In this document: positions 41,127 through 51,793 of the stretch, one piece after another
How positions within the stretch are numbered: the stretch's first letter is position 1
How the letters are laid out: each line of letters starts with the position of its first letter
NCBI GenBank assembly: GCA_965649765.1
Contig: OZ287759.1
Coordinates: 30,256,001 to 30,320,000, forward strand
DNA from: Bispira polyomma
Lineage: Eukaryota
Length of the DNA: 64,000 nt
Direction of reading: 5' to 3'
Program-made: the position numbers and the translations under genes
The notes under the pieces: generated by a model
Database searches by the model: none
What the model was told of the DNA's origin: nothing
The model's input: the letters and a program-made list of their open reading frames with translations, nothing else

Positions 41127-41285
41127 CAGTTCCTAGGTGAGTGTAGGGTGACCTTGAGGTAAGTAGTAGGTCAAGTGTGAACACTATTCTTGTTTGGAGA
41201 AATTTTATTCTATACAGGTTAGTTCTATGTACAGGAGGTAAAAGAGTAGTTTAAAATTTAACTAGTAAAATTTTAAAATATACCC
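41127..41285 (-). repeat. Split direct repeat B2
   Basis: 159 bp, one mismatch to 41987-42145. Confidence 0.95.
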
Positions 41286-41760
41286 GTACGTGACTAGCAT
41301 GTAAACAAGGATGTGGGTAGGACTAGCCTATGTCACATGTACAGAAACACTATACTAAACCTCTATAACTAGCACTAATATCAACTATGATTAGGACTAG
41401 CCTAACCGACATATACAAAACTATATGTAAATTCTATCAGCAAATCCCTGTCATGTCAACTGGGAATAGTAGAGTGGCTTTCGCCACGTCAGGTAGAGAA
41501 GGTATTAACTTACCAGCTCGTGAAACCACTGGCTAGCTCGGAACCCGGGTCCTACGGCACCTAATCGCCTAGCAGTGAAGGTCCCCGGCTGCAGAGCTTT
41601 AATCCCTGGTTGCCCACACCAGGGGGTAGATGCAGCGGGGGACACAGCACCACACGGATCCGGGTTCAAGCCAACGACAGTGATAAGGAAGTTATATAAG
41701 TAGTACTTTGCAATAGTAAAATAAAGTAGCGTTAATGAAGGTAATAGGAGAGGAAGGTGG

Positions 41761-42145
41761 GAATTTAAAATTTTTTAATGTTTACTGTTGCACACTTCAA
41801 TTCAATATGGTGGAATAAGCAGGGGAGCAAATAAGTAAAATAAGGGGGGACCCCTAATTGGTAACCACAAAGGGGATAGAGAGAGGAAAGGAGAGTATAC
41901 CTATGCTAATTAAGGTAGGAATAAAAATTAGGAGAAAGGGGTTTTAGGAACTGAGCTATCAGACCCCTGTAGGGTCGTGATGTTCACAGTTCCTAGGTGA
42001 GTGTAGGGTGACCTTGAGGTAAGTAGTAGGTCAAGTGTGAACACTATTCTTGTTTGGAGAAATTTTATTCTATACAGGTTAGTTCTATGTACAGGAGGTA
42101 AAAGAGTAGTTTAAAATTTAACTGGTAAAATTTTAAAATATACCC
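41761..42145 (-). repeat. Adjacent split repeats B1 and A2 (internal copy of the circle junction)
   Basis: 41761-41986 matches 46841-47067 (2 substitutions, 1 indel); 41987-42145 matches 41127-41285. Confidence 0.95.
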
Positions 42146-43130
42146 AAACCCAAGCTAAGGGGAGAGGGGATGATGGAGGCGAAAGTAAGTGGAACTACAG
42201 CAGCCTGAGAAGAAGAATGCTGGAGATAGGCCCAGATCGCAGAACTACGCCACAGGCCGTGGGACATTATATGCTGTAGGGGAACATTGTTGTTAAATGC
42301 CAGGGATGCCCCCGACCTACAAAAAGTGTGGAAGCCATGGTAACTATGGTCTATCCCTATGTGCTGCAACACAGTTCTTAATGCAGTTCTAATATGGGAG
42401 TCAATGACTGGTAAGTAAGGAGGGGAAGAAGCTACAAAAAGTGGGTGAGTGGGGGAAAGTTCCCTAGACTGAATAAGATGAGTAAGGGCCAGAACAGGAC
42501 AAAGTGATTTATCTTTTAGGACAGGAAGTTGTACTACGTGTGTGTCAGTTCTGTTCTGCAAGTTTTTGGCCCACTTGAGTATTAGATGAGCCCCAGGGTG
42601 GCCAAAAATAATGTCCTGTCTTAACAGGTGCCTGGTAGAGTCAAATTTGCTTCTTGAGTGGGGGGCAATGTTTGACATCCTTAAAAATCCAAAGAATGCT
42701 ACAAGAAATATGGCCCTGTATAATGTAGGGTCGTTTAGAATAGAGCAAGTTCTTGATATGTTCTGAAGTAATTGGATGTCAAAGATTCCCTTTTTGTGTG
42801 GTTTAAAGTCAGATGAAAGTGCCACGCTTTTGAGAAACAGGGACACCGAGTTGTGTGCTAACGCCTGAGTGTTTAAGTTGTACTTAGAAAACATAAACTT
42901 TAGAGCAGCCACGTAGTTGTTGACCACTCGAGGAGAGATGTTGTTTTGGGTGAAGTATTCTAGGAATGCCAGAATAGAGTGGACTGAAACCTGTTGAAGG
43001 CCAGAGTAATGTAGAAACGCTAAGTAAGTCTTGAACTGTGAGTTGTATGCACTGGTAGTTGATGGCCTGAGAGCTGAATCCAGTCGCTGTACAGCTGCCA
43101 GTACCAGAGGTATAGTAGATGGTGCTGCAC
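42133..43130 (-). CDS. Tyrosine recombinase of the Ngaro-like element (no ATG of its own before the N-terminal domain; HxxR Arg changed to Cys)
   Basis: The frame is open upstream of the listed ORF (LRPSTTSAY...LAFLEY). Motifs FFGFLRMSN, CPV, HTFCR and HGLWRSSAIWAY. Confidence 0.88.
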
Positions 43131-43136
43131 CTGTAA

Positions 43137-45101
43137 TTATATGACATAATTTAAATTAAAGAAGTCTACCGGAATATGTTTCCAGTGATACTTGTTCAGT
43201 TCTTTCATTATGCCTGTGTTGGGAGGATTATCAGAATATATGCGTGATAAAGCGTCAGCCTCGACATTGTTCTTGCCCCTAATGTGTTTGATATTTAAAG
43301 TTATGTCGTAAGTGGAGGCTATTAGCCATATGTTTCTAATGCATGTGGCAAGAAAAGAGTCTTTGGTCTTACTAGTGTCAACGACTAACACCACAGCCAG
43401 ATTGTCACACCAAACAGTGACTCTCTGGTGGGCCCAGTCCCTACACCATAACTTCAGAGCTATAATAATGTTTAACATTTCGAGTTGAGTGATTGCTAAG
43501 GTTCTATTATATATGTTATGTATTGGGGTGGCGTATACTTCCTTATTCCAAATGCCGCCGAAGCCCGTCAGGCATGCATCTAGGTGGAATTCTTGCATAT
43601 GTTTAATGTCCTTAGGTGCAATATATGTAATGCCATTGTACAGAGGGAGAAAAGATATGAACCAAGCAATATCTTGCTTTATGTTGTGTGTGATTTTAAA
43701 TCTCTTAGCCTGTGGGTTATCTCTAAAGACAGCAAGAAGTCTATGTACAAATATTCTGGCAGGACGAACACATTTGTGGATGTAGAGAAGTTTGCCTAAC
43801 ATTGATTGGTAGTTAGTTCTTGAGAGCCAGGATTTTTCCCTAATTGTGTGAAGTTCTTTGTAAATATGGTTGATTTTTTCTTGGTTAATACTAATAGTAC
43901 CCTCCTTAATGTCAATATCTATGCCTAAAAAAGTTGTAAAGGTATCAGGAGGAATAGACTTATCGTTATTAATGGGTAAACCAAGCTTCAGAAGTATGTC
44001 ATGAAGGAGGTTATAACCTTTGTTTGCCCTGTCTTTAGTACAGACACAGGCGTAATCATCAATGTAACAGAATAGAGTATAACCTTGTGAATTCATGTAA
44101 TCAGCTATAATGTCTGAACAACGCTGAAACGCCGCACTGCCGTGGGCCCAGCTGAACGCCATGGCAGCGTCAACGTAGGAAGTATCACCCCAGTTAATGC
44201 CTAGTTTGACTGCGTCAGCAGGATCAACTCTGAGATTCCTAAACGCGCGGGAAACGTCTGTCTTAAATATAACTGGTTCCCTAGTGTTCTTTATAGCCTC
44301 AGTGATGTGGTCTATGGAAGGAAATTTGAGAGCAAATTTAGTTTTGTCAAACGTGTCTCTGTGTATCTGACTGTTAACTGAGAGGTCCTGAGGAAATGAC
44401 AGATTAAGGATGATCCTGCGTTTATCAATGTCTTTAGGCCTAGTTAGCAGTGGTGAAGCATGGAAGTGTGTGTCTCTGATTTTAGGAACTGGGCCCAATA
44501 TGGCACCCTTAGACTTTTCCTTTTCAAGATATTTGTTCACCTCCTGAGGGTATTGTAACGCAGAGTGGTGATTTTTTGCATTGTTGTTATGTAGTAATTG
44601 TGGGTTTTCTAGTGAGAGAGGAAAACCGAACTTAAGGTATTGCAACAGAATCTTATCATGATGCCCCTTTAGAAGGTCTTCCCAAGCCTTAATATTGAGA
44701 CCATAACTAAGAGGAATTCTGGCTTCCCTATAATTGGGAACACCTGTATCTCTGATTATACTGGCTATGTTTAACATGTCCTCAACAGTTGTAATGTTAA
44801 TCGGTTCCCTATCCGGGCCAACAAATTCAAAGTCTGTTCTTGATAATTTGATAAACCCTATGTCTTTGGTGTTATCACAAATGTCAATTGCTTTGCTTTT
44901 GTTAGAGTAGTCATGACTCTTGTTGTTGTCAGTTAAACTCATAAAGTATTCATTGTTATGGTCGACCGACCAAACAGCCTGTTTGTGAGAAGAACGAATG
45001 GACGTGATATTTGCATTGTCTTTGCTAGCAGTGGCGTCCGACATGGGTACATTATTGCTGTCTCCAGTGGAATCGCCACTATTAATAATGGCATCAATCA
45101 A
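43137..45101 (-). CDS. Reverse transcriptase / RNase H of the Ngaro-like element
   Basis: KTDVSRAFR, YIDDY, FLGI, DACLTGFG, LEMLN, CDN and NVEADALSR. Probably once continuous with ORF 45098-45547 through a 1-nt shift in an A run. Confidence 0.92.
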   Translation of the reverse strand: MIDAIINSGDSTGDSNNVPMSDATASKDNANITSIRSSHKQAVWSVDHNNEYFMSLTDNNKSHDYSNKSKAIDICDNTKDIGFIKLSRTDFEFVGPDREPINITTVEDMLNIASIIRDTGVPNYREARIPLSYGLNIKAWEDLLKGHHDKILLQYLKFGFPLSLENPQLLHNNNAKNHHSALQYPQEVNKYLEKEKSKGAILGPVPKIRDTHFHASPLLTRPKDIDKRRIILNLSFPQDLSVNSQIHRDTFDKTKFALKFPSIDHITEAIKNTREPVIFKTDVSRAFRNLRVDPADAVKLGINWGDTSYVDAAMAFSWAHGSAAFQRCSDIIADYMNSQGYTLFCYIDDYACVCTKDRANKGYNLLHDILLKLGLPINNDKSIPPDTFTTFLGIDIDIKEGTISINQEKINHIYKELHTIREKSWLSRTNYQSMLGKLLYIHKCVRPARIFVHRLLAVFRDNPQAKRFKITHNIKQDIAWFISFLPLYNGITYIAPKDIKHMQEFHLDACLTGFGGIWNKEVYATPIHNIYNRTLAITQLEMLNIIIALKLWCRDWAHQRVTVWCDNLAVVLVVDTSKTKDSFLATCIRNIWLIASTYDITLNIKHIRGKNNVEADALSRIYSDNPPNTGIMKELNKYHWKHIPVDFFNLNYVI

Positions 45102-45600
45102 ATTTTTTTGTCAGCCACATTAATGTGTTGATAACAGAAACCTGAAGCCATAGGCATATTATGCACATTTAAGTAAACCACATTGTCTACACTATGAATA
45201 ACATCACTTAGCCAATTACAAGTCGAAATGGTAGCTGAGTATGCTATACTATTAAGACCTGTATGGTTATTAGTGTCATTGTCGTTGTAGGTATCATTGT
45301 AGTACATGGCCACTTCATTACAGTTCTGAGTATTTAACTCATTATGACCCAAATGTTGCACTTTTGTGTCATTATGTTCTATTACATTACAGTCAATAAT
45401 GTCCTCATCCATTGGCTTAACTTTTTGGTCCACCTGAATACTAGCTAATTTTCTACTTTTATTTTTAGAAATATTACTTTCTATATCAGCCATTACAGAT
45501 TTATCGACTTTCTGCTGGTTATAAACTGAATTACTACAATAACACAAGTTACTATCTACACTATTGTTACAAGATCCGCACTTTCTAATTGTTCGTTTGG

Positions 45601-46788
45601 TTAGTCGTTGACAACACCCCTATATCTTATTAGGATGAGATTGGTTGGATTTTGATGCAATGCTCTTCTCACACTTTGCAGCCGAGTGAGCACTCTATGA
45701 CAGTACGAACATATGTGCCTGTACTGTCCGTGGTCACCTTCCTGGTGGCACTTGCCTAGGTTGTAGTACTTGCATAATAATCTCCCCTTCTGTGAATATC
45801 CGGAACCGCCTGTGACTGCCCCGGTGTTAGTATGCTGACTGTTAAGCACTGTCAACTGGGATATACTCATGCGGGTTAGGGCCCATTGTGTGGCGTCCCT
45901 CCAATGAAGGCGCCCCTCCTCAATCTCCTGCATATTAGCAGCCCACGCAGCCCTAACTGCAGGCCATGAGAGAGAAACCGCGTCTTTAAGTGAGTGTATA
46001 ACTTGGTCTAACATCTGTCTGAATAATGTCTGGTCCTGGACTTGCGACACGTTGAAGAGTTGGCCTGCTGCCCACTGGGGCAGGGTTAGGTCATCGAATG
46101 TTGGCCTTTTCTTACCGGCTACTCCGCTGCAGCCCTCGTTTGGCCATCTCAGTTGGGGATCGGCATTAGCAATGTCAGTGGTATTGTAACGACTCGATTT
46201 TTGTCTCAAAAGGGGCTTACCTTGCGTCAACTCAGTTCTCAGCTGGGCGTCATAGCTAGCCAGGCGGTGGTTGACGGCCGCGGTCACTTCTGGCAGTGAT
46301 CTCAACACGTCCACTTTGGGTATGATTCCATCCCTCTGGTAATCATGATGTGACGCGATTCTAGGTAAACCGAGTGATCCCTGAGGGTAAGTAGGGTCAC
46401 GAGTGTGTTCCCTGACAGGCGCCGGCAAAGCGAATTCCCCCGTCTGTCTCTGGTCACCAAGGGTACCGTTTCTAGAAGCAGATGGAGATCCGAGAGGGGT
46501 GGAACTATATGATCCTCGCGATTCGACTCTGTCCAGCCGTTTATGGATCTGCGAATTGGCCGTTTCCAGCTTCTGTAACAGTGCCATGACATCACCGAGT
46601 CCGGCTTGATTAGGGACAACTGGCTCCGGTTGGGCGATTGCTGTATCAGCGAGCAGCCCTTGTAAATTGAGAGCTAAGGGGTCCGACACGTTAGCAGAAG
46701 TACCTGTCTTTTTAGTAGGCTTCCTTGTAGAGGCACGTTTTTTCCCCTTCATTGGCACACTAAGAGGTGTCTTAGTTGACTTGCCCAT
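45601..46788 (-). CDS. Gag-like ORF1 of the Ngaro-like element
   Basis: Basic N-terminus, coiled-coil-like segment, CKYYNLGKC...HICSYC zinc-finger region. The expected final H...C (HSAAKC) lies in another frame. Confidence 0.82.
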   Translation of the reverse strand: MGKSTKTPLSVPMKGKKRASTRKPTKKTGTSANVSDPLALNLQGLLADTAIAQPEPVVPNQAGLGDVMALLQKLETANSQIHKRLDRVESRGSYSSTPLGSPSASRNGTLGDQRQTGEFALPAPVREHTRDPTYPQGSLGLPRIASHHDYQRDGIIPKVDVLRSLPEVTAAVNHRLASYDAQLRTELTQGKPLLRQKSSRYNTTDIANADPQLRWPNEGCSGVAGKKRPTFDDLTLPQWAAGQLFNVSQVQDQTLFRQMLDQVIHSLKDAVSLSWPAVRAAWAANMQEIEEGRLHWRDATQWALTRMSISQLTVLNSQHTNTGAVTGGSGYSQKGRLLCKYYNLGKCHQEGDHGQYRHICSYCHRVLTRLQSVRRALHQNPTNLILIRYRGVVND

Positions 46789-46840: not shown

Positions 46841-47067
46841 GAATTTAAAATTTTTCAATGTTTACTGTTGCACACTTCAATCCAATATGGTGGAATAAGC
46901 AGGGGAGCAAATAAGTAAAATAAGGGGGGACCCCTAATTGGTAACCACAAAGGGGATAGAGAGAGGAAAGGAGAGTATACCTATGCTAATTAAGGTAGGA
47001 ATAAAAATTAGGAGAAAGGGGTTTTTAGGAACTGAGCTATCAGACCCCTGTAGGGTCGTGATGTTCA
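46841..47067 (-). repeat. Split direct repeat A1 (element 5' end)
   Basis: Near-identical to 41761-41986. Confidence 0.95.
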
Positions 47068-47642
47068 AACTAAGTCAATGGAACAAAATGATTACATATT
47101 TATACATATAGGGTTATAACCTGCTTCATTTCTAAAGCACTGGTCATATTTCATCTTCAACATTAAGTAAAAATCATTGCTGGACCTTTTCCCTATCCCT
47201 GCCATTCTCCAAGTATTAAATACACTTTGGGTTATAAAACGTTTTCCTGACAGGTTTCCGAATTTGTAATACTTTAATATTGAACACATTTTAAAGGAAT
47301 AGAGGGTCCACTAAAACCACCTCTATTGTTCCATTTCTGTGTGTCAAATCATTGAATTTCTATTAATGAAATTAATTAATCACCTGGTTAATATATTAGA
47401 CAGTTAGGTTTATATTGGTACTACATCAAATTCAGCAACTTTTAACATATATTACATTTATTCAACAAAATCATAAAATAAGATAAAATAACATAGCTTC
47501 ATAATTAATAGGAATGACCTAGATATGTTACCATTCGTTTTCATGGAGGAATTTAAATATAATAGTCAGATTTTAAATATTTTATTGTGCACAAAGATAT
47601 TGTTGGATATATTTAAAGATTATTGTGGGTTTACGTTAAAGA

Positions 47643-48190
47643 CCTGCTGTAATGTAAATAAATAAACATATTCCTACAGCCTGATGTAATATAAATAAAT
47701 AAACACATTCCTACAGCCTGCTGTAATGTAAATAAACAAACACATTCCTACAGTCTGATGTAATGTAAATAAAATAAACACATTCCTACAGCGTGCTGTA
47801 ATGTAAATAAACAAACACATTCCTACAGTCTGATGTAATGTAAATAAAATAAACACATTCCTACAGCCTGATGTAATGTAAATAAACAAACACATTCCTA
47901 CAGCCTGCTGTAATGTAAATAAAATAAACACATTCCTACAGACTGCTGTAATGTAAATAAATAAACCCATTCCTACAGCCTGCTGTAATGTAAATAAATA
48001 AACACATTCCTACAGCCTGCTGTAATGTAAATAAATAAACACATTCCTACAGCCTGCTGTAATGTAAATAAACAAACACATTCCTACAGCCTGCTGTTAT
48101 GTAAATAAATAAACACATTCCTACAGCCTGCTGTTATGTAAATAAATAAACACATTCTTACGGTCTGCTGTAATGTAAATAAAATAAACA
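47643..48190 (-). repeat. Orphan copy of the 37-38-bp acceptor minisatellite (about 15 units), not followed by the receptor exon
   Basis: Same unit as 21105-21515. Confidence 0.92.
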
Positions 48191-48546
48191 TGTACAGTAA
48201 AACTTCCTTCTAACTATAGTGAGTTTATTGGCAATAAAAATGTTCTTTTTATAGAGGCTGTTAGTGTATTAAAAAGCCTGAAAGATGTGAAATCACATAA
48301 AATGGTAGTTAGTAGTTGCTGCTTACAAGGACATTGTCAACATAACATTGTGTGGTACAGTCATGAAGGATGAAGCCTTGGAAAAAAGGTTGTGACATTT
48401 AGTTTAAGGTTATTTATATCACCCATACATACTATTAAATAATGTTAAAAATAGCACCAGAGATGTCAAAAGATCAACTGCCTTTGGGTTAAAACAGATA
48501 ATTATGTTTTACATGTATACCAGGAATATGTTGCACCAAATATGAT

Positions 48547-48890
48547 AAAAGATAAAATGTAATGATCATATGTAGACAAAAGGTAAAATGTAATGATCAT
48601 ACTTAGACAAAAGGTAAAATGTATTGATCATATGCAGACAAAAGGTAAAATGTAATGATCATACGTAGACAAAAGGTAAAAGGTAATGATCATAAGTAGA
48701 CAAAAGGTAAAATGTAATGATTATATGTAGACAAAAGGTAAAGTGTAATGATCATACGTAGGTGTAATGTTATAATTATACTTAGACAAAAGGTAAAATG
48801 CAATGATCATATGCAGACAAAAGGTAAAGTGTAATGATCATATGCAGACAAAAGGTAAAATATAATGATCATATGTAGACAAAAGGTAAT
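48547..48890. repeat. 31-bp minisatellite, about 11 copies
   Basis: Unit aaaaggtaaaatgtaatgatcatatgtagac. Confidence 0.9.
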
Positions 48891-49789
48891 TAAAATGTAT
48901 ATAGTAATTAATAAATACAGAAGTAATGTGTTCAATAATGCTTCATGTCTGATAATGATGATGTGTAGTTTCCTGAAGCATTAGCACTAAGTCAAATTTT
49001 AAAAGTTGACAATAATGCCTGATATAATGATGCAAGGATGCATAATGATGATGTGTATTTTCCTGATGTGTTAACAATAAGTAAAAAAAAAAAAAAATTG
49101 TCAAAAGGTAAAATGTATTAGCATCAAGAAGTATATAATGATAAACAGTCTTATTCACAGTACTACTGATTGGGTATGACTCCATTGAAATTAGAGAAAA
49201 TTAATTAACATTGAATTCAATAGATGTGCTGATGTATGTATACCCTTTGAAACATTACATACAACATGTGACAAAGACTTCCAAGATCTAAGTTTTATTT
49301 TTTCAAAATTTAGATTCATGAAGGCTCAGAAGCGATTTACTTGTAAAAAAAATCATTGAATCAACTATTTTCAGTGTGTCAATATTCTAAAAAGCATTTG
49401 TGAGAATTATTCTACCAAAATTTAAATTTAGTACTTAAAAATGTCTTTTTATTGACATTATGCAGCTACAGTTGTTGTACTGTTTCCCAGTGAGAAACTT
49501 CTCTGTACACGAATATTTAAAATAGAATTGTATTATGTAATTATCATGAACTATGTAAATAATCAAATTGAGATTTGTGAGAATTATTGAACCGAAATTT
49601 TATGTCGTTGTTTTTCGTAATAGACAATAGAATTAAATTGTTTCAGGTGTCTTTATTCAAAATGTGTTCATATAGTTAATTGAATAGTTGGGCATTTGAG
49701 TAGTATATATTTTTTTAAGTACATAACTTCAAGCAGTATTCTTCAGAACCTAATTTAAAAGCTGTTAATTATTGTTATTATTAATTATT

Positions 49790-51793
49790 GTTGCAAATAG
49801 TATTAACAAAGACGAGGAGTGCTTAATCTTATTCCAAAAGGTAAAAAAGATCTACGATACCTGTCCAATACATATAAGATGTAGCAATAAAATAAAAGGG
49901 ATATCTACAAATGGAACTGAGTTCAAAATCAAAATGCTGGCTGATGATACTACCCTTACTTTGAACAGTATGAGAGCTATTGAACTGGTCATTAGGGAAT
50001 TTGATTGTTTTTTGGAATGTTCAGGCTTAAAACTTAACCTAGGGAAGACAGAAATAATTCCTATTGGTCTAAACATGTTCACTGATCCAAAGAAGCCATG
50101 TGCACTCAGTAAAATAAATATAAGAAAAGGGCCTTTTAAAACATTAGGTATTTGGTTCTGCAATAACATAAATGAAATGGTAATCTAATTTTCAAATACA
50201 GGCTAGCCAATATAATGAAAATACTTTTCATTTTGAACTCAACAAATTTATCACTTAAAGGGAGAATAACTATAATAAGGTCATTAATATTACCTCAGAT
50301 TTTATTTCTGTTTGGTTTAATTTACGTACCTAGTGATATTCTTCACCAAATTAAAAATTTGTTTTTCATTTTTTTTTGTGGAGGAACAAGCCTCCTAAAA
50401 TAAAGAGAGATACTATTGTTGCACCGATTGAGATGAGGGGATTATAAATGATTGATGTATACTAAATGCATACAGTGGCTAAGTGTAATTGGACAAAAAA
50501 AATTAATACTAACAAAAACGCAGACTGGAAATCACTGTTTCTTAAAATGCTGTCTATAAATGAAAATATGTTAAATAAAAAACTAAACTTAACTTACCTA
50601 AAAGACATGGCTGCACCATTTCATAGACAAGTATTAGAAAGCTGGTGTAAGATATTTTGCACTGAACTAATTGATAATGAGGAAGTATTGAATGAATATA
50701 TCCTTTATAACAGAAATATAACTATAGCAAAGAAACATATTTCCTTAAATCAGTTTCCGAACAAACTTGGGCACCATATCAAAATCATAGATATTATAGA
50801 TGGCAACGGTGAAATTTTAAAGAGAAATGACCTAAATCTAACATTAAATGCAAAGATGAGTCAAATGACTTACAATTCCGTTATTAGGTTGATTCCCAAA
50901 CAGTGGAAACAAAAACTAAAACAAACGGCTACTATACCTGTAAACCGGTGGACAGATGAAATTCAAGTTAAGCTTAATAACAAACTAGTGCCCCTTTGTA
51001 ATCTCACATCAAAGATAATATATAATGAGCTAATAAGATTACAGTCTAAGCCACCAACCTCAATAGAAACTTGGATAAACCTATACCCCTTTTTAGAAAG
51101 ACATAACTGGAATGACACTTTTATGCTTCCATTTAAAGTGATAAAAGAAACATACATACAGAGCTTTCAGTATAAAGTATTGCACAAAATTATTAACTGT
51201 AATTATAATCTTTTTAAGTGGGGAATTAAGGACTCTCCAGAATGTATCTTGTGTGGAAGTGTTGATACTGTCTCACACCACCTGTTTGAATGCCATGAAT
51301 GTATTGACTTCTGGAAAAAAATTAGAACAGTGGTTGTACAAAATTTTGAATGTTAAATTTAAATTTACAGTGTGTGAAATAATTTTTGGTTTACCTGTAT
51401 CAAGCGATAAAATAATTCAAATAATAAATTTTGTCTTTATTTTAGCAAAAAATTTCATTAACAAAGAAGCAAAAATAAAAAACCTGTCATTTCAAAACTT
51501 AAAAGAAAATGTGAAGGTATATCTTGGCTTGGAAAGAATGGCACATAATGAGGAATTAGATTTACCTATATTAAATTATTATAAATTATTAATCACTGAG
51601 TAACATAGTTTCTGCATTACTTTAATACTTTTTGATCAGCTAAGACTGATATATCTGTATCTTTGTTTATTTGCTCTGTGTGTAAAACTGTGAATGTAAG
51701 ATTGTGAAAATTGTACTACTTGTGATGTATGTATTATTAAAACATTTTTATGTCTTGTTTTGCCAAAAAAAAAATATTAAAAATAAAAAAAAA
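49790..51793 (+). mobile_element. 5'-truncated L1/Tx1-clade LINE (RT C-terminal half, CCHC finger, A-rich tail)
   Basis: LADDTTL, SGLKLNLGKTE, KTLGIWF, LSLKGRITII and CILCGSVDTVSHHLFEC; several stops and frameshifts. Confidence 0.88.

Follow-up and report, generated by a model that had tools for sequence, protein, structure and literature searches.

How is a retrotransposon recombinase made when its reading frame has no start codon? This question is raised by an element in a 64,000-nt stretch of the Bispira polyomma genome (contig OZ287759.1; hereafter the window). Its tyrosine recombinase (YR) frame follows a stop at 43158-43156, and no methionine occurs in this 340-aa frame before residue 88, where the Phage_int_SAM_1 match (residues 26-89) comes to its end. 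A first-pass annotation of the window had correctly noted a stop near 43156 and no ATG ahead of the N-terminal domain of YR, and had proposed that a spliced mRNA joins the recombinase to the N-terminal part of Gag. Comparison of the signals across families supports this proposal, and we consider it very probable that YR is made from a spliced transcript, with Gag residues 1-189 fused to the whole recombinase.

The element is encoded on the minus strand, to which all coordinates refer unless indicated otherwise, with its 5' end at 47067 and its 3' end at 41127; the host genome comprises 1.04 Gb. Repeat comparison delimits split direct repeats arranged as A1-ORFs-B1-A2-B2: A1 (46841..47067), B1 (41987..42145), A2 (41761..41986) and B2 (41127..41285), which ends at the element's 3' end. 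The A repeats (226 nt) are 96-99% and the B repeats (159 nt) 99% identical, and full-length sister copies display the same repeat order. The ORFs for gag, RT/RNase H and YR follow each other on one strand. In all four families checked, pol stops 40 aa past the ADxLS motif and no methyltransferase domain is present. Catalytic YR residues (R150, H267, H290/W293 and Y301) are retained. By its repeats, ORF order, lack of methyltransferase and YR residues the element is a Ngaro retrotransposon. A DIRS1-like element is ruled out, since only direct repeats occur as opposed to inverted terminal repeats and an ICR; a PAT-like element is ruled out by the lack of a methyltransferase domain after RNase H. 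According to the available part of PMC4157794, PAT-like elements share split direct repeats, YR and the Gag zinc finger with the window element but possess a methyltransferase domain, whereas the window RT/RH ends 40 aa past the last RNase H motif. Published Ngaro elements of the order DIRS (Xenopus DIRS-53_XT, PMC9210276; Cafeteria Ngaro, PMC8547959; fungal Ngaro, PMC3783388) have, in the accessible sections of these sources, the same gag, RT/RH, YR order, the A1-ORFs-B1-A2-B2 arrangement and the lack of methyltransferase in common with it. Unlike this set, as far as those sections describe it, the window element has no SGNH hydrolase ORF and carries a 475-nt spacer between A2 and B2.

The window element is damaged and belongs to an ordinary Ngaro family. 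It contains a gag-like ORF (45601..46788, ATG at 46788), a 5' piece of pol (45098..45619) and an RT/RNase H frame without methyltransferase (43137..45110, stop TAA at 43139-43137). Relative to a sister copy, 16 nt are missing near 45691 in the zinc-finger region, which shifts the gag frame near its end, and about 211 nt are missing from pol at 45107-45110. In undeleted sisters a 394-aa Gag ends in TAG (TAG-G) and is followed in the same frame by a pol of 895-897 aa that unites both pieces. The HxxR motif of YR reads HxxC in the window copy (42321-42319) and is intact in 33 of 34 related loci with the motif located; the window YR also extends 7 residues beyond the stop of its sisters. No PDB sequence match was obtained for YR and no Pfam match for Gag, which is named by its position and C-terminal Cys/His motif. 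In fold searches, no structure matched Gag clearly (best E 1.5, best Z 5.1). In a model of Gag from a sister copy (19 sequences, mean pLDDT 63), helices 62-91 and 159-188 are followed by a low-confidence linker (189-195) and then by a helical domain modelled with confidence and the zinc finger.

The predicted donor falls into this linker. The coding part of predicted exon 1 (46221..46788) comprises Gag 1-189, with its basic tail, the long helix 62-91 and helices 159-188, plus one base. It ends within a conserved phase-1 donor AAG/GTAAGC (46215..46223; the slash marks the exon boundary), the last exon base being 46221. This donor is one of two on the element strand that match the consensus at 8 of 9 positions, and the sole one within a coding region. 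The candidate acceptor, ...cataTAAttacag/GTGCA, reads TAAttacag/GT at its end; its T-rich, G-poor tract with CAG (43131..43155) overlaps the end of RT, and the first exon base is 43130. The predicted intron (43131..46220) would contain the complete RT/RNase H as well as the helical domain and zinc finger of Gag, and predicted exon 2 (42133..43130) encodes the recombinase without start codon. The joined frame is open over 521 aa with the junction ...ELTQ-G-AAPST..., and 18 stops appear in it if the donor is moved by one base. In these respects the first-pass annotation proved accurate: its donor after 46221, in phase 1 and 568 nt from the ATG, stands to the base, as do the matching phases, the Gly junction and the length of the fusion. 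Its acceptor before 43130 also stands, but the AG ends 6 nt past the RT stop and not five. Its intron length of 3090 nt holds for the window copy. In most undeleted sisters the intron measures 3295-3321 nt (range 2841-3361 nt over 32 loci), i.e. about 3.3 kb, because the window copy lacks the 16 nt and about 211 nt mentioned above. In 7 of the 39 related loci the joined frame is open throughout, with fusions of 514 aa in five and 507 aa in two.

We wondered if the donor is preserved in other copies and families. The related loci represent 39 of 40 other scored matches and comprise two families, one near-identical and the other at about 70-80% identity. To these, Pfam searches of the genome added 60 loci picked for long open frames (40 of 70 and 20 of 150 matches listed). 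Every GT in each Gag ORF was scored with donor weights that reflect metazoan frequencies in general and were not fitted to this genome. The donor is kept in 33 of 36 related loci covering the site. Across families, a phase-1 donor occurs at a single homologous Gag site in 14 of 14, at a median Gag identity of 27% there. In 13 of these it is the best-scoring donor of the Gag ORF, at alignment columns 380-384 and in phase 1; in the fourteenth, L066, CAG/GTACTG is found at the homologous place with a score below the cut-off. Families fetched afterwards served as a held-out set: the donor was present in 10/10, ranking best in eight and second in two. Among single copies, the site was unlisted in L101 and L107, and L112 is devoid of that part of Gag.

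Conserved signals could arise without any splicing, as a by-product of protein constraint (Gly-Lys in Gag, the C-terminus of RT) acting on AT-rich sequence. Simple acceptor-like sites are indeed numerous along the element. At the donor, however, it is synonymous positions that are maintained. All 14 families use GGT for this Gly, as compared with 100 of 281 among Gly codons in total. In other columns with conserved Gly, GGT accounts for 3/8, 2/6, 1/6, 1/6, 4/13, 2/11 and 8/11 codons, the last column being GGT-rich too, which favours the by-product explanation. The residue past the donor Gly varies (K, T, M or N), yet A at +3 is constant.

The acceptor bears on the same issue, since its AG lies outside the RT coding sequence. 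It is kept in 38 of 39 related loci, and L040 has lost it. For comparison between families, one representative of each was taken (26 in total, with 34% median identity across the end of RT and the start of YR). Further copies of represented families were omitted, together with L056 (no RT), L066, L069, L072 and L077 (junction broken or not located) and L093 (RT stop lost). In 23 of the 26 representatives the first AG past the RT stop is a phase-1 YAG, at a spacing of 6 to 28 nt. It is out of phase in L042, L045 and L058; a phase-1 YAG follows downstream of it in L045 and L058, and L042 is decayed at the site. According to the available part of PMC3783388, YR of Ngaro elements either shares the frame of RT or is shifted from it, and the elements studied here agree with it: 17 representatives have YR in the -1 frame, seven in the same frame and two in +1, with at least six changes of this label on their tree. 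Phase 1 is kept because the distance from RT stop to acceptor shifts along with the RT/YR frame. Sisters L099 (same frame, +7) and L109 (-1 frame, +6), for instance, differ by a compensating single base. Families share ancestry, and their counts are not independent trials. Among distinct frame/spacing combinations, the first AG is in phase in 9 of 11 (p about 0.001 at one third). Such maintenance of phase under changing spacing speaks against the by-product explanation, which is the least probable of the alternatives.

A corresponding trace is found outside this genome. Translation of a T-rich tract followed by phase-1 YAG/G gives a hydrophobic residue, then S/T/A/P/L/I/V, then G/D. Of 268 YR homologues from other genomes, 62 extend N-terminally of the point where the profile begins, and this pattern is matched there by 53 of these 62; in 33 control windows the mean fraction is 0.09 and the highest 0.51.

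The mechanism proposed in print is a different one. Poulter and Butler 2015, as quoted in the accessible portion of PMC13003380, place YR in the -1 frame with an overlap to RT/RH and consider programmed frameshifts its probable route of translation, which would yield a Gag-Pol-YR or Pol-YR fusion. Besides the 17 representatives with YR in -1, such a signal can be recognized in the window itself: the 16-nt RT/YR overlap contains a slippery-type heptamer, T TTA AAT (43149..43155). A slip there would reach YR, as the heptamer is in the RT frame directly past the last YR-frame stop. Heptamers occur also in L041 and L047, and in the decayed locus L093 RT and YR form one open frame. Nevertheless, heptamers are confined to three of the 17 minus-one families, window family included, and among the 39 related loci 20 have the heptamer and 18 an altered form of it. 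RNA downstream folds no better than shuffled sequences (z -0.66). YR is outside the -1 frame in nine representatives, and in six of the 17 minus-one families the open overlap is only 4 nt, so that frameshifting is unworkable in 15 of 26. It would also leave the conserved gag donor unexplained. We therefore regard it as very unlikely. The first-pass annotation had named a frameshift signal before YR as evidence against splicing and had missed this heptamer; such a slippery-type sequence does exist in the window family, but it is neither conserved nor accompanied by a predicted stimulator. The splice sites whose conservation it proposed to test keep their position and phase across families, and they do so while the RT/YR frame relation and spacing vary.

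Alternatively, YR could have its own start, used by stop-start reinitiation at an A-UGA overlap or served by an internal promoter. An in-frame ATG precedes the acceptor in seven representatives, four times as A-TGA on the RT stop, and M-I-x-G/D stands at the beginning of 15 of the 62 extended homologues. In the remaining 19 of 26, window family included, there is no such ATG. Where it does occur, it arises from an Ile ATA codon meeting a TGA stop and lies within the predicted intron; database proteins, moreover, are selected for a start codon. An own start appears even less likely than frameshifting.

Splicing should produce junctions, and these were searched for in several ways. Eight exact patterns from about 10 families detected no intron-less genomic copy; the four matches were all unspliced variants, L080 matching within the 10-nt deletion of L023, and L081, L113 and L114 being point variants. 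Nor was an intron-less copy found among 11 more loci with exon 1, which are truncated or internally deleted elsewhere. L056 was rejected as a fragment without RT, and the 450-aa open frame of L093 is RT-YR in a decayed copy, not Gag-YR. No Gag-YR fusion was present among the 268 proteins (120 of 153 matches listed and the best 150 of 15,883) or in three Gag homologues, but it is rarely expected in those proteins because they are apparently gene calls on genomic contigs. Genome-scale contigs of three runs contained no donor-acceptor joint on the window element, nor one on L109 among the joints listed, which weighs neither for nor against splicing. Both B repeats contain AATAAA (42069 and 41209). 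If the B1 signal were used, the mRNA would end before A2 and the spliced RNA would perhaps escape copying, a possible reason why intron-less copies are rare. L084-L087 and L089 form a subfamily of 91% identity whose members have an internal deletion and a 3' truncation in common. They are found on five contigs, less than 0.7 Mb from the start of each, and probably spread with subtelomeric duplications.

How would the remaining proteins be expressed? In the proposed scheme the host spliceosome would join the mid-gag donor to the acceptor just behind the RT stop, and unspliced RNA would serve as copying template and as mRNA for Gag and Gag-Pol. Gag ends with TAG-G in all eight families of the window clade checked (L011, L044, L055, L065, L100, L103, L108 and L109; near 45620 in the window), and in three loci it is followed by an in-frame pol of 897-1013 aa, which suggests stop-codon readthrough. 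In other families gag and pol overlap in -1 with A AAA AAC or G GAA AAC, suggesting -1 slippage. Gag-Pol would thus probably be made by readthrough in the window clade and by slippage elsewhere. Recoding signals are accordingly visible at the gag-pol boundary and not generally at RT-YR. Locus L073 has a single gag-pol frame of 1221 aa.

Spliced subgenomic RNAs are made by retroviruses (env; pol of foamy viruses) and by Ty1/copia elements (gag). There, as in the scheme proposed for Ngaro, the unspliced transcript is the genome and the spliced form yields a further protein; gag-pol expression apparently by recoding is another likeness. In contrast to both groups, the Ngaro intron would span RT completely, and splicing would yield the integrating enzyme fused to half of Gag, with no protease encoded to release it. 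The retained Gag helices could let YR co-assemble with Gag in the replication particle, a role to which we assign roughly equal chances of being right or wrong. Exon 1 may instead contribute no more than a start codon plus a tail that is basic and possibly nuclear-targeting. Control of recombinase dose by the splice is plausible. It is an evenly balanced question whether, in animal Ngaro elements generally, a conserved splice removes RT and tethers YR to the N-terminal helices of Gag as a particle-loading or cDNA-targeting handle, with a retrovirus-like set of Gag, recoded Gag-Pol and spliced Gag-YR replacing the frameshift model.

No description of such a splice was found in the literature searched, which did not extend to Goodwin and Poulter 2004 or to Poulter and Butler 2015; Repbase annotations or supplements could mention spliced ORFs. 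The string "splic" is absent from the available text of PMC9210276, PMC8547959 and PMC3783388. Likewise, this splice is not described in the accessible parts of PMC9341512, PMC7192593, PMC3266345, PMC6681497, PMC5633606, PMC13003380 and PMC4157794, and those of PMC5009743 mention neither DIRS nor Ngaro. In the portions available of these sources, frameshifting is the sole mechanism of YR expression found in print. The spliced Gag-YR scheme is well supported and apparently unpublished. A conserved splice would have an exact junction, accessible to RT-PCR. If it is true, current YR ORF annotations are truncated, the actual protein for recombinase biochemistry is Gag-YR and not YR alone, and splicing becomes a possible point of host control over mobility of the element.

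Further features were observed in and around the element. Between A2 and B2, a 146-nt stretch (41535..41680) is predicted to fold strongly (z -3.6). It is common to some other families, where its copies are 81-89% identical, and has approximately ten times the contig depth of the remaining element. No Rfam match was obtained at gathering level; the stretch is possibly a replication signal or ribozyme. Upstream of the element, two minisatellites are located at 47622-48256 (units of 37-38 nt) and 48488-48951 (units of 31 nt). On the plus strand, a short frame at 49769-50188 resembles, by eye, a decayed piece of a non-LTR reverse transcriptase.
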